In this document: positions 1,596 through 20,966 of the stretch, piece by piece
Numbering within the stretch: the first letter of the stretch is position 1
How the letters are laid out: each line of letters starts with the position of its first letter
Assembly (NCBI GenBank): GCA_963771175.1
Contig: CAVYSY010000052.1
Coordinates: 225,834 to 289,833 of the forward strand
Origin: an uncultured delta proteobacterium
Lineage (GTDB): Bacteria; Myxococcota; Myxococcia; Myxococcales; Myxococcaceae
Reading direction: 5' to 3'
DNA: 64,000 nucleotides
Program-made: the position numbers and the translations under genes
The notes under the pieces: model-generated
What the model was told of the DNA's origin: nothing
Database searches by the model: none
The model's input: only the letters and a program-made list of their open reading frames with translations

Positions 1596-1934
1596 TGGCC
1601 AGCCGCTCGATGGCGATGCTGAGCACCTCGAACATCGCGCACAGTTGGGACAGCCGGCCGGAACCCGGGGCCTTCTCCACCTCCACCACCACATAGGGAG
1701 GCACCGCCTGGGAGCGCAACCTCACCTGCCATTTCTCCTTGGGCTCCAGGAGCTCGTGCTCGCCCGGTATCACCACCAGCGCCGGGTTGCCCGGCCCTGA
1801 CAGCGCCCCGTGGGTTTTGTCTGCTTCTGGCGCATGAGGAGCGACCCGGGAACGGGATGCTGGCCGCGGGACTCCTCCGTAGGTTCGCGGCCGCTCACCC
1901 TGCAAGTGTGGGCGGACATCCACGGAAGGTGGCC

Positions 1935-4900
1935 ATGCGAGCGAGGCGCGCAGCTTCAGCTGTCATCATCGCAGTGATACTGCTCGCCACCGGGCTCGGA
2001 GGCAGCGAAGCCCAGGCCCTCTCGCTGACGGTGGTGGACTCCAGCGGCCGGCCGGTGGAGGGGTTCCGCTGGCAGCTCGAGGAGGACACGACGCTGCCCG
2101 TGGTGCCTGGGGTCCGAAGCAACGACATCCCCTCCCTCACCATCCACGGCAGCTACTCCCCGGTGGTGGCCAAGGGAAGCTCCACCACGTCCGTTGCCAC
2201 CATCGATGTGCCGGCGAACAAGCGCTACCTGGTGTCCGTCCTCCCGTTGAAGGGACACACCCTGAGCGGCACCCAGGTGGCGGTGGGACAGGCGCTGGTG
2301 ACGGTGGTGGTGAACACCGAGCCCATCCCCACCGCTCAAATCTCCGTCCTCGTCTTCCATGACCGCCAGCCCATCAACAACGCCCCGGACATCCCCGCCG
2401 AACCGGGCCTCGCTGGCTTCTCCGTCGTGCTCTCCGACGCGCTGGGGCAGGTGTCGCAGGACGCCTTCGGCAACCCGCTGGGCACCACCTATCAACAGAA
2501 CGCGGATGGCTCCTTCGTGTTGGATTCGGAGGGACTGCCGGTGGTCGCACAGCCCGGCTCCGGCGTCATCCTCACCGATGCCGCGGGTGAGGCGCTCATC
2601 CGCTTCCTGCCTCCCGGAAAGTACGGGGTCCGCGCCGTCCCGCCCATTGGCACCGACTGGGTGCAGACCGCGACCATCGAGGGCACTCCGACCGTCGATG
2701 CCTGGGTCAAGGCGGGCGAGCCGCCCTACTTCTCCGAGTGGGGCACCCTCGACCACCACGCCTTCATCGGCTTTGTCCGGCCGATGCGCTTCCCCGCGCC
2801 ACCCACCGGCCCGGTGGGGACCCTCACCGGGCGCGTCGTCTACGTCCACGAGAACCGCCCGCCGCTGCAGCCGGGCCTGAATCCAGGGGTTCCGGTGGAG
2901 GAGTGCTGGGTCGGGCTGAACGCACTGGGGGGCGCCGACGAGCAGGTCTACTCGCAGCCCTGCGGCCCTGGCGGCGGCTTCACCATCGAGAACGTCCCTC
3001 CGGGCGTCTACCAGCTCGTGATGTGGGACTTGCCCCTCGACGCCATCATCGACTTCCGCACCCTCACGGTGCCTCCGGGAGGCGGAGTGCTGGCGCTCGG
3101 GGATGTGTCCGTCTATGCGTGGTTCGGCTTCCTCGAGGGCAGCGTCTTCTACGATGCCAACGCCAATGGCTATCGGGAGCTCGGCGAGGCAGGCATCCCC
3201 AACCAGGCGCTCAACCTGCGCTTCCCGGACGGCTCGCTCTACAAGGCGACCATCACCGATCCGACCGGACGCTACCGCTTCAAGGAGGTCTTCCCCTTCT
3301 TCCACTGGCTGGTGGCCGAGGTGGACTACACCCGCTACAAGCCCACGGGGATGACCGCCGTCATCGATGAGGGCGGCCCACTGCCGCCGGGCGCGAGGAG
3401 CACTCCGCAGCCCCAGCCCGTCATCAACCCCAACACCGGCGACAACCTCTCGCGCACCGAGAGCGGCGAGGTGCTCACCCAGGCGATGCTGCTCTACGCC
3501 GGGCAGACCCACCGGATGGACTGGGGCAAGGTGGCCTACGGCCGGACGGAGAATGGTGGCATCTCCGGAATCGTGCACTACGCCACCACCCGCGCGGAGA
3601 ATGATCCGCGCTACGCCGTGGGGGATGACTGGGAGCCCAAGGTGCCCCGCGTCCAGGTGAACCTCTACTCGGACACCAATGGCGACACCGTCATCGACGA
3701 TCTCAATGGCGACGGCCGGGTGACGCCGGCGGACGTGGACAACGCGCCCTTCGACGACTTCCCCGGCCCGGGGGACGTGGATCGCAACGGCGACGGCACC
3801 TTCACCCCGGGCGACGCCCTCAACGTCATCCACACCGACAGTTGGGACGACAGCCGCCCCACCGGCTGCGTGGGCCCGCCGCAGCTCGTCCACGGGCAGC
3901 CGGTGCGGGACTGCGCGGAGACGCTGCGGACGTGGAGCCAGCTACGCCCCGGCGTGTTCGACGGAGGCTACCTCTTCTCCTCGTACTTCCCGGGGGGCAT
4001 GGGCTCGGGCAGCTCGGAGGTCCAGGGGCTCCCGCCTGGCCTCTACGTGGTGGAGGCCAATCGCTCCGCCCGGGTACGAGACCGTGAAGGAGGAGGACAA
4101 GAACGTCGACTTCGGTGAGCAGACCACCCCGAACGAGCTCGTGCCTCCCGTCTGCGTGGGCGAGCCGCACCGGGTCCCCGCCGAGCTCTCGCTCTTTCCG
4201 GGCGTGCCCGCGCCCTTCGCCGGCACCACGCGCCCGCTGTGCGACCGCAAGCAGGTCCGCATGGGGCGCGGGCAGAACAGCGCGGCCGATTTCTTCGTCT
4301 TCACCGAGGTGCCCAAGGCGGGCCGCATCTGGGGAATGGTCCTCAACGACGTGCTGCTCGAGTTCAACCCCGACAGCCCCAAGAAGGGCACCAACTTCGG
4401 GGTGCCGTGGCTGCCCATCTCCATCAAGGACTTCCGGGGCAACGAGCTCGTCCGCACCTACAGCGACGAGTGGGGCAAGTACAACGCGCTGGTGCCCTCC
4501 ACCTACACTGTGAACCGGCCCACGCCGACCGGCGTGTCCCCCGGAATGCTCACCGTCTGCCTCAACGATCCGGGCCCCATCCCGGATCCGAGCACCCCCG
4601 GCCGGCTCATCACGGACCCCTGGTACAACCCGGCCTACGGGCACGTCTGCACGAACTGGGAGTTCTACCCGGGAAAGACGACCCCGCTGGACACGCCCAT
4701 CCTGCCCATCGCCGCCTTCACGGCGAACCGGCGTCCGCTGGACTGCGAGTTCCCGGAGGGCACGCCGCTCATCGAGTCGGTGAGCGGGCCCGCGGGAGGG
4801 CCGCACGTCCCCGCGCCCGGCGGGCTCATCACCCTCACCTCGGTGGGAGCGATGACCGTGCCCAACCCGGCGTATGACCCGGACACGCCCGGCAGCCCGC

Positions 4901-6846
4901 CCACCGTCGTCCGAGACTACGGCTTCGGCGGCACCCCCGGGACGGTGACGGTGGATGGCACCCCCTGCCCATCGTGAGCTGGGCGGCCGACGGCTCGCGC
5001 ATCGTGGCGCGGGTGCCCGCGAGCGTCCGCACCGGACAGCTCCTGGTGCGGCGTGGCAACGGGAGGACCTCCGAGATGGGCCTCACGCTGCACGTGGGCC
5101 CGCGCGCCATCCGCCGCGTCTCACCGGGCGGCTCCATCCAGCAGGCCATCGACGCCGCCCCGCTGGGGGCCCTCATCCTGGTGGCGCCCGGGACGTACAA
5201 GGAGAACCCCATCCTGTGGAAGCCCGTCCAGCTCCAGGGCTGGGGCGCCTTCTCCACCGTCATCGAGGCCGGTCCCCTCTCGCCCGCGGAGCAGGCCGCC
5301 TGGGATGCGAAGCTGGCCGCCCTCATCGACTCCGGGGATATCCAGCTCCTCCCCGGGGAGCGGCCCGACTTCTTCCTCGAGCAAGGGGCTGGCATCACCG
5401 TGGGGTCCCGGCCAGGCCGCTTCACCGCCGGGGCGCAGGGGCGGCATCGATGGCTTCACCATCACCGGAGCCCTCAAGGGCGGCGGCATCTTCGTCAACG
5501 CCTACGCGCCGTTCCTCACGCTCAGCAACAACCGGCTCATCAGCAACCAGGGCAGCTTCGGGGGCGGCATCCGCGTGGGCACCCCCTCGCTGGTGAATAC
5601 CGCGGGCAACGGCTACCTGAGCTCGAGCAACGAGAACCTCCGCATCCACCACAACCACATCACCCAGAACGGCGCCATCGACGGCGGGGGCGGCGTGGCC
5701 CTGTTCAACGGCGCGGACGGCTACCAGGTCACGGACAACTTCGTCTGCGGCAACTTCACGCTGCTGTACGGCGGCGGCATCGCCCACTTCGGCCTGAGCG
5801 ACGAGGGGCTGATCTCCCGAAACCGCATCGTCTCCAACCAGTCCTTCGACGAAGGCGGGGGGCTCATCATCGCCGGGGAGCTCGTCCCGGCCGGGGCGCC
5901 ACCCGGAACGCTGACACCTGGCGCCGGCAGCGTGCGGGTGGTCTCCAACCTCATCCAGGGCAACCAGGCCGGGGACGACGGTGGCGGCGTGCGCACGCTG
6001 ATGGTCAACGGCCAGGACGTCCAGCGCCGGCCCACCTCGCCCTCGCGCTGGTACCAGGTGGCCCTCCTCAACAACCTCATCGTCAACAACTCGAGCGCCG
6101 ACGTGGGCGGCGGCATTTCCCTGGATGACACCGCCCGGGCCATCGATCCTCAGCAACACCATCGCCCACAACGACAGCACCGCCACCGGGGTGGACGCCT
6201 TCGGCGGCCCGTGCATCCCCGATGCGCCGTCGGGCCAGTTCTGTCCCGAGGAGGGAGGCACCATGGGCGGCATCACCACCTCGGTGCCGCAGGTAGCGGG
6301 CCTCGCCGCCAGGGCCCACAGCACGGGCCTCCAGGCCGCGTTCGGCCCGGGCTTCGGGCAGGAGTTACTCCGACCCCGCTCCTCCACGACAACATCCTCT
6401 GGCACAACCGGGCCTTCTACTGGGATGCGGCGTACCGCGACGGCCTGGGCGGCCTGCGCCCGGATCTCACCGCCGGCGAGGCCCCCCACTACTGGGACCT
6501 CGCCGTGTACGGCACGCTCACGGCGCAGTTCCTCGAGCCGCACTTCTCCATCCTCTCCGAGCCCACGCCGGGAGATCCCACCAACGTGGCGGTCGATCCG
6601 CGGTTCGTCGCGGGCTACTTCAACCAGTACCAGGCGACGTCCAAGGGCTCGGCCTTCGGCAACTTCGTGACCACCACCTTCCTGCCCACCGGGCGCGTCG
6701 GTGACTACCACCTGGGCCCCGGCTCGCCCGCGAATGGCGTGGGCGCCGGCCTCTTCCGGCTCCTCTTCCCCGAGCTCCTCTTCGACATCGATGGCGAGCC
6801 GCGGCTCGGCTTCACCGTGGACGTCGGTGCGGACGAGTCACGCTGA
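1935..6846 (+). CDS. Giant secreted protein (about 1630 aa when joined): SdrD-B/prealbumin-like Ig repeats, Ca-binding Dx[DN]xDG loops, IPT/TIG-like domain, right-handed beta-helix; about 5 frameshifts
   Basis: Signal peptide MRARRAASAVIIAVILLA..; GSVFYDANANG..GEAGI; DLNGDG, DRNGDG; SIQQAIDAA..ILVAPGTYKEN; repeated GGGI/N..GN motifs; continuous sense across ORFs 1857-4118, 4084-4977, 4974-, 5053-6846 and 6125-. Confidence 0.75.
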
Positions 6847-6870
6847 GCACCCCCCGCGAGGAGTCACACC

Positions 6871-8075
6871 ATGAAGGCGCTCCAGAGACTTCCCCTCCTG
6901 CTCGTGCCGCTGTGGCTGGCATTGGCCTCCGGGCCGGCCCACGCGGCCGTCTCCACCCAGTGTCCGCCGGATACCGATGGCGTGGACACCGACGGGGATG
7001 GCAACCCCGCCAACGACATCGTCTGCATCCACCTGGCCGCCGGCGACGGCTTCGTCAACATGGCCGACGGCCGCCTCCATGTACATCTTCGGCTTCTCCA
7101 ACGTCACCGGCGTCCCCGACGAGCAGGTGATGCAGGAGGCGATGCTGGGCGCCCAGCTCCCCGGCCCCCACGCTCGAGGTGAAGGGAGGGCCAGCAGCTC
7201 TACCTGACGCTCACCAACGTCGGCATGATGATGCGGCCGGACCTGTTCGACCCCCACTCGCGTCCACTGCCACGGCTTCCCCAACGCCGCGCCGATCTTC
7301 GACGGCGTGCCCGAGGCCGCCGTCGCCATCAACATGGGCGCCAGCCTCACCTACTTCTACGACGTGCGAGCGACCCGGGCACGTACATGTACCACTGCCA
7401 CGTCGAGGCGACCGAGCACATGCAGATGGGGATGCTCGGCAACCTCTACGTGCTGCCCGCGCCAGGACGGGACGCGAGCGCGAGCACCCGCCGGGCTCGG
7501 GCCGCCCCTACCGGCAAGTTCGCCTACAACGACGGCGACGGCTCCACGGGGTACGACGTGGCCGATTCCCGCTCCAGATCGCGTCCTTCGACCCGAAGTT
7601 CCACGACGCGAGCCTCGCCATCCAGCCGCTGCCGTTCGCCGCCATGAAGGACACCTACCCGCTGCTCAACGGCCGCGGCTACCCGGAGACCATCGACCCT
7701 CTCCCGCGGAGCAACAGCTTCAACGGGCGCGCGTCCCAGCCGCTCGGCTCGCTGATCCGCGCCACGAGGGGGCAGCGGATCCTCCTGCGCCTCTCCAACC
7801 TCTCCACCACCGAGTACTTCACGCTCACCCTGCCGGGCCTCCCCATGCAGGTGGTGGGGCGGGACGCCAGGCTGCTGCGCAGCGCCTCGGGGGAGAACCT
7901 GTACCAGACCACCACCACCGTCACCCTGGGAGGCGGCGAGTCCGCGGACGTCATCCTCGACACGGCCGCCGTCCCGCCGGGGACGTACTTCCTCCACACC
8001 ACCAATCTGCACCAACTGAGCAACGACACCGAGGATCTCGGCGGGATGATGACGGAGATCGTCATCACCCCCTGA
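6871..8075 (+). CDS. Two-domain cupredoxin/multicopper oxidase protein A (T1 site plus HxH/HCH in domain 1); several frameshifts
   Basis: Signal peptide; reconstructed PHSVHCHGFPN at about 7252-7285; GTYMYHCHVEATEHMQMGM at 7378-7434; LLNGR and RILLRLSN in domain 2. Confidence 0.8.
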
Positions 8076-8099
8076 GCAGGCCCCGGCAGGAGACGGACC

Positions 8100-9347
8100 A
8101 TGAGGCACGCATCACACGAAGGAAGGGCGCTGGCGCTGCTGCTGCTGCTGCTGCTGCCGGTGCGGCCCACGCGACCATCGACGGGGTCACCGGGCCCCAA
8201 TTCGAGCTCATCGCGCGGGAGGGCTTCATCCTGACTCCGGATGGCAACAGCATCTACACCTGGGGCTACGGCGTGGCGGGAGGAGACATGCAGTACCCCG
8301 GCCCCACCCTCATCGTGAACCAGGGGGAGCTCGTCACCCTTCAGCTGACCAACGAGCTGCCCGTCCCGGTGTCGATTGTCTTTCCCGGCCAGGAAGGCGT
8401 GGCGGCCACGGGCGGTGTGCCGGGGCTGCTGACCCGCGAGGCCGGGCCGGGCGAGTCCGTGAGCTATACGTTCCGGGCGAGCGAGCCGGGCACGTACCTC
8501 TACCACAGCGGCACCCGGCCCGAGCTCCAGGTGGAGATGGGGCTGGTGGGCGCGCTCATCGTCCGTCCGGCCACCCCCGGGCAGGCCTACTCGCACCCCG
8601 CCACGGCCTTCGATCATGAGTACCTCTTCCTGCTCACGGAGATGGATCCGCGCATCCACGAGCAGGTGGAGCAGGGGAGGATGGAGCAGGTGGACACGAC
8701 CGACTACCGCCCGGTCTACTGGTTCATCAACGGGCGTGCCTCGCCGGACACCATGGCCCCGGCCGGCGCGCCCTGGCTGCCGAACCAGCCCTACGACTGC
8801 ATGCCGATGATGCACCCGGGGGAGACGATCCTGCTGCGGATGATCGGCGCCGGGAGGGATCCGCATCCGTTCCACACGCACGGCAACCACGCGACCGTCA
8901 TCGCCCGGGACGGCACGGCTGCTGGAGAGCGCTCCCGGCTTGGGACCGGACCTGGCGCGTGAGCACTTCACCGTGACGGTGGCGCCCGGGCAGACGACGG
9001 ACGCGCTGTTCCGGTGGACCGGTGAGAAGCTCGGCTGGGACATCTACGGCCACGCCGCGGGCGACGCGCCGCAGCCGGGCGAGTACGCGCCGGACCATGG
9101 CAAGCCCTTCCCCGTGGCGCTGCCCCACAGCAACGAGCTCACCTTCGGCGACTTCTACAGCGGCACGCCCTTCCTCGGGGTGCTCGGGCCGCTCCCTCCC
9201 GGACAGGGGACGCTCAACCTGGAGGGCAGGGCTACTTCTTCATGTGGCACTCCCATGCCGAGCGGGAGATGGTGAACAACGACGTCTTCCCCGGGGGGAT
9301 GATGACCATGCTCATGATCGTCCCCCCGGGCGTCGACGATTCCGTGA
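8100..9347 (+). CDS. Two-domain cupredoxin/multicopper oxidase protein B (His motifs only in domain 2); frameshifted
   Basis: Leu-rich signal peptide; YPGPTLIVNQG; GTYLYHSG; WFINGR; HPFHTHG at 8864-8884; WHSH at 9245-9256; stop inferred at TGA 9345-9347. Confidence 0.75.
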
Positions 9348-9364
9348 AGGAAGAGGGTGGAGAC

Positions 9365-10378
9365 ATGAGGACGTGTCACGGTCGATCGCTGCTCTTCCTC
9401 GGCCTGGTGGTGGCCTCCCTCGAGGCCTCCGCCGCCGAGTACTTCCTCCAGGTCCAGCCCCTGTCCCGCACCATGCCCGATGGGCAGGTCGTCACGATGT
9501 GGGGGTACGCACTGGACGAGGATCACGACTTCACGACCCTGGACTCGCCAGTCACCGTGCCAGGGCCGCGGCTCGAGGTGCCCGCTGGGGACACGACGCT
9601 GACCGTCCACCTCTACAACGGGCTGACGGTCCCCACCTCGCTGCTCCTCCCGGGCCAGGTGACGGCCCTGTCACCGACCTGGGTGGATGGCGGCGCCGTC
9701 TACGTGGGCCAGCGGCCCGCGGGCAACGTCACCGCCCGGGTCCGCTCCCTCACGCAGGAGACGGCTCCCGGGACGGCCGGGGTGTACTCGTGGACGGGCT
9801 TGAAGCCAGGGACGTGGCTGTACCAGAGCGGCACCCACTCGGCGGTCCAGGTCCAGATGGGGCTGTATGGCGCGATGGTGAAGGCGGCTGGCGCCGGCGA
9901 GGCCTACCCTGGCATTGCGTACGAGCGGGAGGTCACCCTCCTCTTCAGCGAGGTAGACCCGGTCCTCCACGAGGCGGTGGCCAGTGGCACCTATGGGCCG
10001 GGCGGCACCGTCACCAGCACCATCGGCTACCAGCCGCGGTACTTCCTCATCAATGGTGAGCCGTACTCGGCCGCGGTGAGCCCGTTGCCCGCGGGGCGCG
10101 TGGGGGAGCGGATCCTCCTGCGCTTCCTCAGCGCCGGACAGCAGACGCGAGTCCCGGTGCTGCAGGGCGCATACCTGTCGCTGGTGGCGGAGGGAGGGAG
10201 CCCACTGCGCTACCCCCAGCGCCAGTACTCGGTGCTGCTGCCAGCGGGCGGCACGGTGGATGCGTTGCTGACCCCGGGGGCCCCGGGAGTCCTGCCGCTG
10301 TACGACCGGCGGCTGGGGCTCTCCAACGGCACGGCCACCGGTGGAGGAATGCTGCGCCTGCTCCAGGTCTCCCCTTGA
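9365..10378 (+). CDS. Two-domain cupredoxin-fold protein C lacking copper-ligand motifs
   Basis: RBS-like GGAGA and signal peptide MRTCHGRSLLFLGLVVASLEASA; VPGPRLEV; GTWLYQSG..QMGLYG; YFLINGEP; ERILLRFL. Confidence 0.75.
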   Translation: MRTCHGRSLLFLGLVVASLEASAAEYFLQVQPLSRTMPDGQVVTMWGYALDEDHDFTTLDSPVTVPGPRLEVPAGDTTLTVHLYNGLTVPTSLLLPGQVTALSPTWVDGGAVYVGQRPAGNVTARVRSLTQETAPGTAGVYSWTGLKPGTWLYQSGTHSAVQVQMGLYGAMVKAAGAGEAYPGIAYEREVTLLFSEVDPVLHEAVASGTYGPGGTVTSTIGYQPRYFLINGEPYSAAVSPLPAGRVGERILLRFLSAGQQTRVPVLQGAYLSLVAEGGSPLRYPQRQYSVLLPAGGTVDALLTPGAPGVLPLYDRRLGLSNGTATGGGMLRLLQVSP

Positions 10379-10410
10379 GGGCCCGGCGGCCCGCGAGGCA
10401 GGGAGGAAAC

Positions 10411-10872
10411 ATGCACGGAAGAACCGCGAGCTGCTCGGTACTGGGCGTGACGGCCCTGGCGATGCACCTCCTGCTGGGGGCGGCGGGCTGCGCCTCCAGC
10501 CGCTCCGTGAGGGCTCCAGCGGCGACACCGCGGGAGGAGCTCGCGGAGCGATGGGGGGTGGAGGTGCAAGGGATTCGGCGGGTGGCCGCTGGCTACGTCC
10601 TGGACTTCCGCTACCGGGTGGTGGATCCGGAGAAGGCGGCGCCACTGTTCGAGCGGCGCGTGAAACCCTACCTCGAGGACCCCTCGACGGGCGCGAGGTT
10701 CCAGGTCCCCAGGCCACCCAAGGTCGGCTCGCTCCGTCAGACCCCAGCCGCGCCCGTGGACAACCGGACCTACTTCATCCTGTTCGCCAACCCGGGCCGT
10801 GCCCTCGAGCCGGGAAGCCGGGTGACGGTAGTGATTGGAGACTTCCAGGCGACAGACGTGACGGTGGAGTAG
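10411..10872 (+). CDS. Hypothetical lipoprotein, last gene of the cupredoxin operon
   Basis: RBS GGAGG; lipobox AAGC; beta-rich AAGYVLDFRYRVVDPEKA..YFILFANPG. Confidence 0.7.
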   Translation: MHGRTASCSVLGVTALAMHLLLGAAGCASSRSVRAPAATPREELAERWGVEVQGIRRVAAGYVLDFRYRVVDPEKAAPLFERRVKPYLEDPSTGARFQVPRPPKVGSLRQTPAAPVDNRTYFILFANPGRALEPGSRVTVVIGDFQATDVTVE

Positions 10873-10903: not shown

Positions 10904-11716
10904 CTACGGAGTGGAGGCCGGCATGCAACCCCACTGCTTCAGGTCCTCGGAGACCGTGGTGCATCGCCATCCCTTGCCACAGGAATCCAGGTCGAGTGGA
11001 TCGCACCGGCTGAAGCACGTGCTCACGGTGGCGCTCCCCATTCCGCAAATCTGACCGCCGGGGCAGCTGTCCGCCAGCAGCGGATTGCAGATGCGCGCGC
11101 ACCAGAAGACTCCGTGAGCCCGAATCACCTCCGCGTTACAGCGTTCGCCCGGGCCACACGGCGTTTCGGGACAGTCCCCCTGGATGCGCGCGAGGCATCG
11201 GTATTCGGAGTCGCCGAGGCGTTTGCACCGTTCTCCCCGAGGACAGCCGAGCTTCCGGCAGTCCGCATGGCACGCCGGGCCATCGAGGGAATCCTCACAC
11301 GAATGTCCATCGGGACAGCTCAACGGCTCATCCAGCCGACAACGCACGCCACATGTCCCGGAGAGGCACACCAGCCCCTCCCGACAAGCCCCCCCCGGAG
11401 AGACGTACCCGAAATCGCATGGCTCTCCTTCTCCGCGTTCACCCTCGGGCGTGCAGCGGCGGACGACCACGCCCGTGGCCCCGGTGGTCACCGCACGGCA
11501 GACGGAGCCAGGGAAGCAATGCACGTCCTCCTCGCATTCCGAGGCCATGCACTCGAAGCGGCGGGTCTCTCGATTTCCCACACACCCCTGCCCCGGCGGA
11601 CAGTCGCCATCGATACGGCAACTCCCACAATTGAAGAACGTCCCCGCCTCATTCCACGTGCAGCGAAAGGCGGAGGCGGGAAGACCATCTGGCGTGTGGT
11701 TTCCTTTTTCCCGGGC
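10904..11716 (-). CDS. Cysteine-rich repeat protein; 5' end truncated or frameshifted
   Basis: Repeated C..CPxGxxC motifs; the reading frame stays open upstream of the GTG at 11581 (CGSCRIDGDCPPGQGC) until a stop near 11717-11719. Confidence 0.6.
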   Translation of the reverse strand, partial: AREKGNHTPDGLPASAFRCTWNEAGTFFNCGSCRIDGDCPPGQGCVGNRETRRFECMASECEEDVHCFPGSVCRAVTTGATGVVVRRCTPEGERGEGEPCDFGYVSPGGACREGLVCLSGTCGVRCRLDEPLSCPDGHSCEDSLDGPACHADCRKLGCPRGERCKRLGDSEYRCLARIQGDCPETPCGPGERCNAEVIRAHGVFWCARICNPLLADSCPGGQICGMGSATVSTCFSRCDPLDLDSCGKGWRCTTVSEDLKQWGCMPASTP

Positions 11717-16437: not shown

Positions 16438-18666
16438 CTATTCGAAGCGCTCCACCGCCCGGACGTCCGCTGCGAGAGAAGACGACAGCGGAATCAGGAC
16501 CGCCGTCCCGCTGGATCTTGACGCCACGATCGCGTCCGGTACCGAAGCTCCAAGCAGACCGAGTACGTCTGCCCGCCCCGCGATCTGGCTTGCCTGGCCT
16601 GAGTGAAGCGACCGTAGACGCGGTCCTGCCCAAAGATGAGCCGGCCGGAGAGGACGGTGCCCGCCTTCAGCGTCCCCAGGTCGTCCAGCAGCGTGAACGT
16701 GGTGAACTCGTTCACGGGGACGGGCTTGGAGCCGCCGACGACGGGGAATGTGGCCGGCGGCCTCGTCGTCAATGTCGATGTCCAGCTCCTTCATGGTGGC
16801 CAGGGCCTTGGCGGAGCAGTCCTCGGGCTTGGGCATGGGGCGCACCGGGGGCGTACCCGCGCAGGCGCCGAGGACGGCGCAGCAGGCGGCGCCGACGCAC
16901 TTCTCCACGAAACGGGCGCGCATGCCCTTGCGCTGTAGCTGAGGAGCGGGCGTCTCTTCGGGCCTCGAGGGGGAGTCTTCCTTGCGAAGCATGGTGGCGA
17001 ATCCGGGCGCGGGGGTGGGGGCCAGGTAGAAGGCCGCGCCCACCCCAGCTTCACGCCTCTCCTGGGAACTCGCCACTTCACGGACGGCACAGAACGGCGC
17101 AGCAGGGCCCGCTCGCAGCGACTCGACAGGTGGTGAAGGCGAAACCACCGACCGCGCCGTGGAAGACGAGCCGGGCGCCGGGCGCGTATGCACCACCCAC
17201 GCGCCAGCGCTCGCCAGGGCCAGCGCCCCCACCGCCACCACGAAGAGCGCGGCGGGCCGGAGGGACGCCACCGCTACGGCGCGCACTGGAAACATCCCGA
17301 AGCTCGTGGGGAAGACGCGCGCGAGGGCCCGACGGAGGGGGGCGCGCGCCTTCCGCGAAGGCCCAGGCCGTGCGAGGCCCGGCGCCCGCCGTGGAGCGGG
17401 TTCCGCCCTGGCGGCAGCGGGGACTCCAGGCGGCGCAGACGGCGGGGCGGACTCGGGCACCGGAGGCGGCAGGCCCTCCCAGGCGTGTTGCGGCGCCACC
17501 TCCGCCAACACCGCCACGAGGGCCTCGGCTGGCGAGGCCGCGGCCCGCGCCACCTTCGCGGGGGCAGGAGGCTCGGCCAGCTTCGCTGGCAGGGGGGCGG
17601 GGACGGCCGGAGTGCCGTCGCTCTCCCGCACCGGCTGCGGCTTCTGGGCGGCCTTGCGTCCACGCCGGGGACGGTCCGCCTTCCACGCGAGGCCCGCCTG
17701 CGCCTCCCCTGCCGGGGGCCCCATGCCGGGAACCTTCACCGTGGGCGTCGCGTCCGGCGCATCCGGGTCCATCAGCGGCACGTCCCAGCGCGCGTCCCCG
17801 TCCGCCGCGGCGAGGGCCGCGTCCAGGGCGCCACACAGCTCCACGTAGTCGGAAAAGCGCGCCTCCCTCCCCTTCTCCAACATGCGCATGCACACGGCGC
17901 TCAAAGCCGGGGGCACGCGCGGGTTGCGCTCGTGAGGCGCGGGCGGTGTCTGGGTGTGAATCCTGTCGTAGAGGCCCCCTTCAGCGCGGTGGCCGAAGGG
18001 CAGCACATCGGTGAGGAGCCAGTAGAGGGTGACGCCGAGGGCCCACAGCTCGTCGCCCACGTCGGGCCGATAGCCCGCCTTGCCCTGGGAGGTGTCCTGC
18101 GCATGGCGGACGAATTCGGGCGCGCGGTACTCGTCCGTCCCGGGCAGGTAGCGCTCGCCGGTGATGGTGGGCTCGCCCGCCAGGTAGCCAATGCCGAAAT
18201 CCACGAGGACAGGCCGCCCATCCGAGTCGCGAATGAGGATGTTCTCCCGCTTCAAGTCCCGGTGCAGCACCCCCTGCTTGAGAATCTCGGCGAGCGCGAG
18301 CGCCACCTCGAGCAGGACGCGCACCACCTGGCGCGCGGTGGGGTTCTCCTCCAGCGCCCACTGCTCGAGCGTCCGGCCCACGACGAGGTCCATGATGAAG
18401 CACAGGTAGCCGTGGTCCGGGTCCGGCCACCTGTCGCACGCCCGGAAGCGGACGACGTTCTCGTGCACCACGTGCCGGAGGATGGTGATTTCCCGCTGGC
18501 CCCAGCTCTCCAGCTCGCGGGCGCGGATGACCTTCATGGCGAAGGAGCGGCCCGCGCGCTCCACCTTGTAGACGAAGCCGAAACCACCGTCGCCCAGCTT
18601 CTCCTCCACACGGTAGTCCCCCACCATGTCACCGTACTCAGGGGGCTTGAAGGGCGGGGCATGCAT
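16438..18666 (-). CDS. Hanks-type Ser/Thr protein kinase with Pro/Ala linker, TM segment and C-terminal domain; frameshifts near the 3' end
   Basis: LGDGGFGFVY, FAMK, HRDLKRENI, DFG and YRAPE all intact. Confidence 0.9.
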   Translation of the reverse strand: MHAPPFKPPEYGDMVGDYRVEEKLGDGGFGFVYKVERAGRSFAMKVIRARELESWGQREITILRHVVHENVVRFRACDRWPDPDHGYLCFIMDLVVGRTLEQWALEENPTARQVVRVLLEVALALAEILKQGVLHRDLKRENILIRDSDGRPVLVDFGIGYLAGEPTITGERYLPGTDEYRAPEFVRHAQDTSQGKAGYRPDVGDELWALGVTLYWLLTDVLPFGHRAEGGLYDRIHTQTPPAPHERNPRVPPALSAVCMRMLEKGREARFSDYVELCGALDAALAAADGDARWDVPLMDPDAPDATPTVKVPGMGPPAGEAQAGLAWKADRPRRGRKAAQKPQPVRESDGTPAVPAPLPAKLAEPPAPAKVARAAASPAEALVAVLAEVAPQHAWEGLPPPVPESAPPSAPPGVPAAARAEPAPRRAPGLARPGPSRKARAPLRRALARVFPTSFGMFPVRAVAVASLRPAALFVVAVGALALASAGAWVVHTRPAPGSSSTARSVVSPSPPVESLRAGPAAPFCAVREVASSQERREAGVGAAFYLAPTPAPGFATMLRKEDSPSRPEETPAPQLQRKGMRARFVEKCVGAACCAVLGACAGTPPVRPMPKPEDCSAKALATMKELDIDIDDEAAGHIPRRRRLQARPRERVHHVHAAGRPGDAEGGHRPLRPAHLWAGPRLRSLHSGQASQIAGRADVLGLLGASVPDAIVASRSSGTAVLIPLSSSLAADVRAVERFE

Positions 18667-18859
18667 GGGAGTGAGGCGTCCTCCTGGCTCGAAAAACCAG
18701 CATGGCATGGGAGGAGGCACCGTGCCGCCGCGGGAGGCCGCGCGCGTGCCACGGCTCCCCTCTTGGGCTGTCGCCGGAGCCAGGGGTAGCGCACACCGGA
18801 ACCCCTCCGGAACGGGTGCGGCTCGGCCCCTGGCCCCGGCTCCAACTCGTGAGGCGCGG

Positions 18860-19254: not shown

Positions 19255-20433
19255 TCAGTGGACACCGCCGGGCTCGTCGGACTTCAGGTCCGGGGGCACG
19301 GGAAGGACGCCCTGCTCCACGTCCACATGAGCCGCCAGCTTCCGCAGGTCGGAGGCTTCCTTGAGGATTTCACTCATCTCCGCCTCGGCCTCCTTCGCAC
19401 CGTAGGTCCGGCCTGGACGGGCGTGGAGGAAGTCGCGCAGGTCGTAGCGCATGTCGTCGGCCGACGGGTAGCGCTCGGCGGGGTTGGGCCGCAGCGCCCT
19501 CGTCACCACCTTGCGCAGGGGCCCGGGCAGCTCCCTGGCCGCGCGCTCCACCTCGTCCGGGCCGAAGTGCAGCACGCGGTTGGCGAGCGTCTCCAACGGC
19601 AGCAGCGTGGAGCGCTCGGCGCGTACCTCGGGAGGGAAGCGCTCCTCGAGGTCCTCCCACAACTGGTCGGGAGGGTCCAAGGGGTAGCGGGAGAGCAACA
19701 TCTCCAGCAGCACCAGGCCGAGGGAGAAGATGTCGGCCCGGCCGTCCAGTTTTCGGGGCGTGAGCAGGTCCCTCTGCCGAGCCTCCGGCTTGAGGAAGCC
19801 GAGGAGGATTTCCGGGGCGATGTAGGCCGGGTCTCCCCGAAGCAGCCCGTGCCGCGTGGGAATCCGTCCGAGCAGCTCCGCGTAGGCGGCGCCGAAGTTG
19901 GTGAGCTTGACGCGACCACTCGCCCCCAGGCGGATGCGCATGGGGCCCACGGCGCGGTGGACGAGCTTGAGGGGGTTGCCGTCCTCGTCCTCACAGCGGT
20001 GCGCGTAGTCGAGGGCGGCGGCCACCTCGGCGGCGACGTACGCCGAGAAGTCGGGACTCAGCTTGCGCCCCACCAACCAGGCCGCGTCCATGAGGGTGAG
20101 CAGGAAGCAGCCGCGCAGGTGCTCCATGACGATGGAGGGCTGCTCATCCCACACCACGTACCCGTACACGGTGGCGATGTTGGGGTGACGCAGGACCTTG
20201 GAGAGACTCACCTCCTCCAAGGCCCGGTGCCTCGCCTCACGCCCGTGCTCCATGACGATGGGCTTGAGGACGACGAGCTTCGCTCCTCCCCCCTGGAGGG
20301 GCTCTCGCGTGGCGAGCAGGAGGGTGTCGTAGTCGGGGTGGACGACGAGGGGACGCACCACCTCGTAGCGGAAGTCGCCCACCTGGAAGGGCTGGTGGGG
20401 CTTGAGTCCGCCGGGATTCTTCGGCTCGGACAT
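19255..20433 (-). CDS. Ser/Thr kinase-fold pseudokinase
   Basis: VVLK, LRHPNI and YIAPE present; HRD is HRA, DFG is NFG, no Gly-rich loop. Confidence 0.85.
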   Translation of the reverse strand: MSEPKNPGGLKPHQPFQVGDFRYEVVRPLVVHPDYDTLLLATREPLQGGGAKLVVLKPIVMEHGREARHRALEEVSLSKVLRHPNIATVYGYVVWDEQPSIVMEHLRGCFLLTLMDAAWLVGRKLSPDFSAYVAAEVAAALDYAHRCEDEDGNPLKLVHRAVGPMRIRLGASGRVKLTNFGAAYAELLGRIPTRHGLLRGDPAYIAPEILLGFLKPEARQRDLLTPRKLDGRADIFSLGLVLLEMLLSRYPLDPPDQLWEDLEERFPPEVRAERSTLLPLETLANRVLHFGPDEVERAARELPGPLRKVVTRALRPNPAERYPSADDMRYDLRDFLHARPGRTYGAKEAEAEMSEILKEASDLRKLAAHVDVEQGVLPVPPDLKSDEPGGVH

Positions 20434-20966
20434 GGGAGGCTCCTGGGAGTCAGTACTCGTCCAACTCCGCGAGCGCACCGCGCGTGGATGCATACGCCGG
20501 GGGCGGCGTGTTGCTGGCGCACGCCAGGGGATACAGCCACGCGAGGAAGACGGCGACAAACAGGCCCGGCGAGAGACGGGCGGAACCCATGGACAGACGA
20601 CTCCCCTTCCGGCGCGAAAGAGCTTCGCTCGGCACGATGGCACCTCCAGAGCACCAATGACTTGGATTTGGCTGACGACCAGACAGGTAGCACAGCCCAA
20701 CGAAGGAGGGAAGCCCTGTCCAACCACGGAGGTCATCCAAACGGGCCAACCCGTCAGAGCGGCAGATGCCTGTTTTCACGCGAGGAGCGCCAGCCTCGGC
20801 GACTTGGAATCGATAAGTCAGGCCAGCCAGCCTGACTTCGTACGTTGGTCGCCACGCAAGCTTGAAAGCATGAAGCTCCCGGTGCATTCCGCATCGGGCG
20901 CGGCGCGCACCCCTTGATGGTAGGAAGGCGCCACCATGGCTCGCCTGACCCTGCCCCCACCATCCA

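Follow-up and report, generated by a model that had tools for sequence, protein, structure and literature searches.

The window analysed was a stretch of 64,000 nucleotides of contig CAVYSY010000052.1 from an uncultured delta proteobacterium. The genes in question were located at positions 6871-10378, where three consecutive paralogous genes (A, B and C) were found on the plus strand with gaps of 17-32 bases between them. Each gene encoded a predicted signal peptide and two cupredoxin domains, which agreed with an earlier interpretation made from the letters and the open reading frames (ORFs) of the window (hereafter the sequence-only reading) that had described three adjacent secreted two-domain cupredoxin genes. 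The three proteins probably make up an obligate heterotrimer, a two-domain multicopper oxidase (MCO) derived from a type C enzyme. The features of the three genes are given below. As the reference for alignment of the window and for residue numbering, the locus of Myxococcus sp. RHSTA-1-4 (L001), which is intact, was used; the intact ortholog of A was found at L001:4525-5715 (396 amino acids, aa) and that of B at L001:5740-6984.

Gene A, 6871..8075, plus strand: subunit with two cupredoxin domains; domain 1 with the type 1 (T1) copper ligands and half of the trinuclear-cluster ligands, domain 2 ligand-free.
A motif HxxHxH, 7255..7273, plus strand: H127, H130 and H132 (L001 numbering); a T1 His plus an HxH pair; interrupted by a single extra base.
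A motif HCH-x5-H-x4-M, 7393..7434, plus strand: H172, C173, H174, H180 and M185; T1 Cys, His and Met and the second HxH pair.
Gene B, 8100..9347, plus strand: subunit with two cupredoxin domains; domain 1 ligand-free, domain 2 with the other four cluster His.
B motif HPFHTH, 8864..8881, plus strand: H256, H259 and H261 (numbering of the 414-aa L001 protein).
B motif WHSH, 9245..9256, plus strand: H383, S384 and H385; Ser at the T1 Cys position of type B enzymes, Asp in the Protein Data Bank (PDB) entry 3g5w.
Gene C, 9365..10378, plus strand: intact, 337 aa; ligand-free subunit with two cupredoxin domains, proposed to be the ring-closing third subunit.

In the window, domain 1 of A carried H-S-V-H-C-H (7255-7273) and HCH-x5-H-x4-M (7393-7434), and the ligand positions of its domain 2 were occupied by YFTLTLPG and LHTTN. 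The corresponding positions of B domain 1 read VSIVFPG and YLYHSGT, while B domain 2 contributed four His (HPFHTH and WHSH) and no Cys. No HxH or Cys ligand motif was found in the 337-aa window copy of C. All of these motifs, and their absence from C, were where the sequence-only reading had placed them. The full ligand set of a multicopper oxidase, namely four HxH pairs and the T1 His-Cys-His(-Met), was present only when A and B were combined. A had two domains with T1 in the N-terminal one, as type C enzymes do; B and C had two domains and no T1. Each type C protomer has cluster ligands in domain 1 as well as in domain 2, a combination carried by none of the three proteins.

A profile scan of 185,579 species genomes with C confirmed 519 loci, of which the best 80, picked by similarity to C, were examined. 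The complementary split proposed by the sequence-only reading, in which A domain 1 and B domain 2 supply all eight His and one T1 site, was found throughout these loci. In A, the ligands H127, H130, H132, H172, C173, H174, H180 and M183 were kept in 72-73 of 74 homologs; by motif, HxxHxH was conserved in 72/74 and HCH-x5-H-x4-M in 72-73/74, and the two homologs missing ligands were N-terminally cut sequences. The ligand set of B was kept in 77-79 of 79 homologs, or 78-79 when the ligand His and Ser alone were counted. The first motif of B (HP.H.H) was present in 77-79/79 and the ligand His of HPFHTH in 78-79/79, and H-S-H, with Ser replacing Cys, was found in 78/79. Both A motifs, including M185, were invariant in the 49-row alignment of A homologs (A2), as were the B ligands in alignment A3. 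At the matching positions of A domain 2, B domain 1 and both C domains, a ligand pattern was never seen among the 74-80 homologs; the family patterns at these sites were YFTLT.PG and LYTTN in A domain 2, and VSIVFPG and YxYHSGT in B domain 1.

Three conserved features of A and B other than the ligands were also observed. The N-terminus of A (window 6955-7030; L001 residues 29-51) contained an invariant Q-C-P...C pair around an Asp/Gly-rich stretch, DTDGVDTDGDGNP, which resembles a calcium-binding loop with a disulfide closure and was conserved across phyla. The interdomain linker of A carried an invariant His (H240). In B domain 2, a long conserved insertion (window ~8990-9230; residues ~300-375) with invariant W306, D314, E328, H333 and P338 had no counterpart in 3g5w.

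The gene order A-B-C on the same strand was found in every locus where the contig extended far enough; conservation of gene order in homologous clusters, a check named by the sequence-only reading, was thus confirmed. C was present in 80/80 loci, B in 79/80 and A in 74/80. The missing genes were all at contig ends (B in L054; A in L033, L046, L054, L059, L064 and L077) and, apart from this loss, no A or B without its partners was found among the 80 loci; homologs occurring singly, which would have spoken against that reading, were not encountered there. The 80 loci belonged to Myxococcota, Planctomycetota, Nitrospirota, Thermodesulfobacteriota, Bdellovibrionota-like bins, Hydrogenedentes, Lentisphaerae and many Gamma- and Betaproteobacteria, with Gallionella, Sideroxydans, Sideroxyarcus, Thiobacillus, Sulfuricella, Thioploca and Methylocaldum among the proteobacterial genera. 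The 519 loci with relatives of C suggest that the system is common, and many of them were in iron or sulfur oxidisers, Nitrospirota and Planctomycetota. In addition, a protein search with C yielded 776 relatives among the 8000 candidates scored.

Pairwise identity among A, B and C was 26-32%. A tree of the 72 complete trios, from which loci with incomplete cores were left out, placed A, B and C in three clades of 72 sequences each with support of 1.0, 0.966 and 1.0, respectively. Judged from these sequences, A, B and C are paralogs that form three old clades, and the separation of the clades indicates that the genes were triplicated before the system spread through these phyla. The cupredoxin-type Cu-oxidase domains that define the multicopper oxidase superfamily were present: Pfam Cu-oxidase_3, Cu-oxidase_2 and Cu-oxidase were found in A and B above the gathering score, and C scored 20.9 and 17.8 bits against Cu-oxidase_3, below the gathering cut-off of 21. 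A scan with NCBIfam gave no model above cut-off for A, B or C.

The best PDB sequence matches of A and B were 3g5w and 2zwn, followed by copper nitrite reductases. HSVHWHG and YHCHVEAAEHIQMGM of A aligned to HTIHWHG and YHCHVNVNEHVTMRGM of 3g5w domain 1, and HPLHTHG and WHSH of B aligned to HAIHTHG and IHDH of 3g5w domain 2. In this alignment to a type C two-domain oxidase, a comparison that the sequence-only reading had pointed to, the A motifs fell on the domain 1 ligands and the B motifs on the domain 2 ligands. The AlphaFold2 model of the window C had a predicted local distance difference test (pLDDT) of 88.6 and a predicted template modelling score (pTM) of 0.85. Its best match was 3g5w_A (E 1.2e-20, template modelling score 0.68/0.72, 321 columns, 19% identity), with 2zwn next.

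A complex of the three proteins was modelled from A (25-396), B domain 1 (26-170) and C (25-337), with C as the partner and a 49-row alignment for each; mature A, B and C together amounted to ~1074 residues and the trimmed cores of the smallest complete set to 1029. The interface score (ipSAE) of the complex was 0.90 and that of the best of three controls 0.51. The ipSAE mark of the test was reached by 116/157 solved complexes and 2/215 mismatched pairs, counts that are only approximate for this complex, which used its own alignments and three chains. Contact agreement between runs was at least 97% and the partner pLDDT at least 89. Confident contacts were found in A only at 257-391 (domain 2), in B domain 1 at 94-101, 110-111 and 140-146, and in C at 94-164 and 211-330, and many of the contact residues were at or beside vestigial ligand positions. 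In the model, C was in contact with A domain 2 on one side and with B domain 1 on the other, leaving A domain 1 free for B domain 2, which is the ring order needed for the pairing of A domain 1 with B domain 2. An alternative order, in which A domain 1 would contact C domain 2 and A domain 2 would contact B domain 1, has an equal number of interfaces and was chosen in none of the three runs. Since the runs differ only by seed, the modelled order was counted as modest support. Overall, the complex model favours C bridging A and B, with binding predicted, and is consistent with the ring closure by C that the sequence-only reading had suggested.

Two further genes flanked the trio in the window:

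UP, 1857..6846, plus strand: giant secreted protein of ~1660 aa, with a probable signal peptide from an internal Met at 1932.
LIPO, 10411..10872, plus strand: 153-aa lipoprotein with lipobox LLGAAGC; uncharacterised family; modelled as a beta-sandwich.

Domain searches of UP (Pfam/NCBIfam) identified SdrD-B-like and carboxypeptidase-regulatory-like immunoglobulin-like (Ig) folds, a right-handed beta-helix and a weak NosD-like start, and comparison with solved structures gave only weak matches to SdrD and UafA adhesin domains. A UP homolog was found upstream of A in most of the 80 loci. In L020, L035, L062 and L070, which represent several phyla, UP and A formed an in-frame fusion through a dockerin-like or Ig-like linker, and the junction lacked a signal peptide; 36 of the 120 long A-containing proteins listed had such a fusion. 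A LIPO homolog was found directly downstream of C in 68/80 loci. LIPO had no Pfam or NCBIfam family and its protein atlas clusters were annotated only as 'hypothetical protein'. The LIPO model (pLDDT 90.2) had no match in the PDB at E ≤ 0.001, and only generic Ig-like folds were retrieved. The conserved unit was larger than three genes, with UP and LIPO as at least two more members; the heterotrimer proposed by the sequence-only reading gained support, but its unit of three genes was incomplete.

Farther downstream, a subtilase gene followed C in 46 of the 60 loci with at least 3 kb of downstream sequence. A SCO1/SenC copper chaperone and a MofC-like cytochrome (cytochrome c plus a periplasmic-binding-domain protein) were encoded in 21 of the 46 loci with at least 5.5 kb, and type II secretion genes were adjacent downstream in three loci. 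The Myxococcus loci (window and L001) consisted of UP, A, B, C and LIPO only. In the window, a Cys-rich 225-aa ORF with no Pfam family (10904-11581, minus strand) converged on the end of the operon. Genes for two Ser/Thr protein kinases (Pfam Pkinase) were found at 16441-18720 and 19258-20736, both on the minus strand; these genes, the ~70% G+C content and the 90% match to a Myxococcus genome fit a myxobacterial origin.

Fusions among the three subunits were searched for in longer relatives. No A-B or A-C fusion was found among the 120 long A relatives listed, and no A-B fusion among the long B relatives, of which the top 35 were mapped. A related family of 866-1177 aa (P0123, P0125, P0126 and P0128-P0133) carried a B-like module (HPFHPH and WHSH, no Cys), a linker of 170-460 aa and then a ligand-free two-cupredoxin module resembling C or B. 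The members of 1156-1177 aa were considered as B-A-C fusions, and this was rejected as their middle part had no HxH or HCH motif. Separately, many proteins of ~800 aa (L045:1668-4097; P0238, P0241, P0244, P0245, P0249 and others) had an N-terminal part of ~420 aa preceding the A module. The same part preceded the B module in P0121 and P0122, and its precomputed Pfam matches were PF22778 and PF01569; only the accession was given for the latter, which is presumably the PAP2 family.

Alignment of the window to L001 gave 89.8% nucleotide identity over 8047 columns and showed that A and B were broken by ~16 single-base insertions or deletions (indels). In A, there were 11 single-base insertions (7079, 7163, 7186, 7259, 7367, 7374, 7461, 7475, 7517, 7567 and 7572). 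The sequence-only reading had allowed for one apparent extra base, and one was indeed present within the HxxHxH motif of A, but the damage was far greater. In B, a net -1 shift was found in the signal peptide near 8150, together with +1 insertions at 8912, 9228, 9234 and 9337, and UP had six frame-breaking indels at about 4063, 4965, 5427, 6145, 6367 and 6379. The true stop of B was TGA at 9345-9347. A B-C fusion, seen as a read-through in ORF 9242..10378, was rejected because the single-base insertion at 9337 hides this stop.

These disruptions raise the question of whether the frameshifts in UP, A and B are real and the operon is decaying and dead in this genome, even if it works elsewhere. 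Such decay is rather unlikely. It would account for the ~22 frame-disrupting indels within 4063-9352, and a hidden Markov segmentation of the whole window by the phase of third-codon-position G+C (GC3) did recover the known frame switches. However, 20 of the 22 indels were one-base insertions (the two deletions being at 4965 and the net -1 near 8150) and many of the window-specific insertions repeated a neighbouring base, which looks like read error rather than mutation. Once the window-specific insertions were removed, A, B and UP had no internal stops and every ligand residue was retained, so that the motifs noted by the sequence-only reading survived correction of the frame. The corrected proteins were 85.4% (A), 87.2% (B) and 88.7% (UP) identical to those of L001, compared with 84.6% for the undamaged C, and the synonymous/nonsynonymous codon differences were similar (A 42/57, B 62/50, UP 171/165, C 57/50). 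Because corrected A and B were as conserved as intact C and free of internal stops, sequencing error appears more likely than gene decay as the source of the frameshifts in A, B and UP. The GC3 segmentation had a reference only for 2343-10379, and elsewhere frameshifts and gene boundaries look alike in it; same-strand frame switches at other places (e.g. about 25768 and 31448) may be either.

A cluster that had been noted in Sideroxydans lithotrophicus ES-1 was compared with the window genes. He et al. (2017, PMC5566968) mentioned 'three tandem MCO genes' in this strain, predicted to be extracellular, with no functional inference in the passage available. Keffer et al. (2025; bioRxiv 10.1101/2024.09.20.614158, PMC12016527) described 'three cupredoxin proteins' and a higher expression of Slit_1812-1818 on magnetite than on Fe(II)-citrate and, in the text available, placed oxidase motifs in Slit_1817 and Slit_1818 and not in the larger Slit_1816. 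By eye, the peptides of their Table S3 (PMC12016527) matched A for Slit_1818 (515 aa), B for Slit_1817 (520 aa) and LIPO for Slit_1815 (170 aa). Slit_1816 (2873 aa) looks like a C-UP fusion, since its peptides read by eye included both C-like and UP-like ones. On this basis, the part of the source at hand suggests that Slit_1815-1818 probably represent the same set of gene families as A, B, C/UP and LIPO; as the peptides were read by eye, the link is probable rather than proven. In the same table, with AM15, CM15 and FM15 taken here to denote magnetite cultures at day 15 and FC taken to denote Fe(II)-citrate, peptides of Slit_1815-1818 were detected in the AM15, CM15 and FM15 columns and hardly in FC, with 17-27 peptides of Slit_1816 against 0-3 in FC.

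To give the proposed enzyme, the gene of a type C two-domain enzyme would have been triplicated in ancient times, and the copies would then have lost copper ligands in a complementary manner. Every subunit would be exported by its own Sec-type signal peptide, and the three would form a six-domain ring in the order B domain 1, B domain 2 / A domain 1, A domain 2 / C domain 1, C domain 2, with one catalytic interface among three. There, A domain 1 (H130, H132, H172 and H174) and B domain 2 (H259, H261, H383 and H385) would ligate a single trinuclear copper cluster. A single T1 copper would be held in A domain 1 by H127, C173, H180 and M185 and wired to the cluster via the H172-C173-H174 triad. 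Substrate electrons would enter at T1 and O2 would be reduced to water at the cluster. C would provide two copper-free ring-closing domains and, in most taxa, also adhesin-like C-terminal domains. UP would be tethered to the oxidase (as in the lineages where it is fused to A or C) and would probably bind either to the cell surface or to a substrate that is solid or polymeric. As the substrate of the oxidase, solid-phase Fe(II) is the best lead, or else some other metal or mineral outside the cell.

The basis for this heterotrimer comprised the gene order, ligand conservation, paralogy, fold and fusions, together with the bridging of A and B by C at the level of the model. Several points weigh against it. 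Assembly, copper loading, O2 reduction and substrate were all inferred. The complex was modelled without B domain 2, so the His geometry between A domain 1 and B domain 2 lies outside it. Its pass may reflect model memory, because similar homotrimers (two-domain oxidases and nitrite reductases) are solved, and the control in which A was replaced still scored 0.51. Paralogs can also pass such tests, and a second A or B might fill the third place instead of C. In the genome survey, the other 439 loci may include single-gene or differently organised relatives. The Myxococcus loci had no adjacent subtilase, SCO1 or cytochrome genes, and A, B and UP were frameshifted in the window itself. Finally, the ES-1 match to A, B, C, UP and LIPO is one of peptides read by eye.

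An arrangement in which A and B form the catalytic pair, C is a separate surface or adhesin protein and the third place is taken by a second A or B, or left open, would fit the long adhesin-like C-terminal extensions that are usual in C. In 69/80 C homologs, the extension was 50 aa or longer, with domains resembling Ig, cadherin or dockerin, and complex models can pass close cousins of a true partner. This arrangement is unlikely nevertheless. C was adjacent in all 80 loci, and its core was ~50% identical across phyla with 32-46 invariant columns, many of them non-ligand residues. Nine C homologs, including the Myxococcus copy, had no extension, although one of them (L029) was cut by a contig end. 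In the complex model, the vestigial ligand faces of C were placed against those of A domain 2 and B domain 1, and in the related family of long proteins a B-like module is joined to a C-like module that lacks ligands. A further alternative is an assemblage that is not an O2-reducing oxidase, e.g. one in which A carries electrons as a blue-copper protein and B is a mono- or binuclear copper protein, separate or loosely associated. Cupredoxin-fold proteins with no oxidase function exist (FtsP-like annotations were among the C relatives), and the MofC-like cytochrome gene of many clusters hints at an electron relay instead of direct reduction of O2. This alternative is very improbable: exactly four HxH pairs were kept, two each in A domain 1 and B domain 2, and they lie where the subunits of solved trimers come together; the eight His were all essentially invariant; and the Cys has a cluster His on either side, the canonical wire from T1 to the cluster.

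The heterotrimer of A, B and C was also compared with what has been published. The two-domain MCOs described in the passages available of one source are homotrimers (PMC13151041), and no genetically encoded heterotrimeric or split MCO was found in the literature searched on two-domain and heteromeric MCOs, a search that did not extend to Figure S4 (cluster comparison) of the Keffer preprint. A '2dMCO heterotrimer' was considered as a precedent and rejected, since the text available describes a proteolytic form of a single gene product (PMC11761707). No proposal that the A, B and C proteins are one enzyme or that their ligands are split was found in this literature, and the cluster is not mentioned in the part available of a 2026 review (PMC13741234). 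The passages of He et al. and Keffer et al. leave the ES-1 proteins uncharacterised and are silent on split ligands or a heterotrimer (PMC5566968, PMC12016527). Within these sources, the cluster was noticed before in Sideroxydans and the heterotrimer reading was not found in print. Three 'separate oxidases' that are probably one enzyme would change the practice of expression, purification, knockout and annotation.

In the ES-1 cluster, SCO1/SenC and MofC-like cytochrome genes are present according to the passages available, as they were in the 21 of 46 loci with longer downstream sequence. In contrast, the window had no adjacent SCO1 and cytochrome genes, and its C and UP were separate, with UP upstream of A, whereas C and UP of ES-1 are apparently one protein. 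The OmpB/MofA-type clusters of Geobacter and Leptothrix encode predicted extracellular oxidases with a mofC-like cytochrome and SCO1/SenC in the same passages (PMC5566968), a combination shared with those 21 loci and not with the window. The three tandem ES-1 oxidases were stated there by He et al. not to be homologous to the OmpB/MofA-type metal oxidoreductases (PMC5566968).

The closest known enzymes are of type C, represented by 3g5w (blue copper oxidase of Nitrosomonas europaea) and 2zwn (mgLAC, a two-domain laccase from a metagenome), which have two cupredoxin domains per chain as do A, B and C. Their T1 site is in the N-terminal domain with an HCH-x5-H...M loop, as in A, and their domain 2 has HxxHxH and a Cys-free HxH, as in B (H-S-H in B, H-D-H in 3g5w). 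In the passages available, two-domain MCOs are trimers with a trinuclear site formed from residues of two protomers, and those of type C have T1 in the N-terminal domain (PMC13151041). By this definition, A domain 1 and B domain 2 would be one complete type C active site split over two genes. The cluster of type C enzymes, as described in that source, spans the domain 1/domain 2 subunit interface of the trimer, and the same is proposed here. However, a type C homotrimer is built from one gene product and has three T1 sites and three clusters, whereas here no chain had both ligand sets. Three paralogous genes would be needed for one cluster-capable interface, and one subunit would be without copper ligands.

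Like the ceruloplasmin-type enzymes, the proposed complex would arrange six cupredoxin domains in a ring and keep one trinuclear cluster at a single domain interface, the cluster having been lost from the other interfaces. Ceruloplasmin has its single cluster between the first and last domains, and it has three T1 sites as compared with the one proposed here. A common view derives six-domain MCOs from two-domain trimers whose genes were triplicated and fused and whose redundant copper sites were lost. If the heterotrimer of A, B and C is real, it would be a step between the homotrimer and the six-domain chain, being triplicated, with complementary loss of sites, and unfused, and an evolutionary model would become testable by ordinary biochemistry. 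A wider proposal, that it is a living intermediate between homotrimeric two-domain and six-domain enzymes, and the catalytic core of a ~300 kDa extracellular complex with UP that serves many phyla in oxidising solid-phase substrates such as Fe(II) minerals, is tentative and less likely than not to hold. Six-domain MCOs are single-chain and monomeric in the passages available (PMC13151041). Unlike them, A, B and C are three polypeptides with separate genes, signal peptides and stops, and their six domains would be brought together by assembly of the ring.

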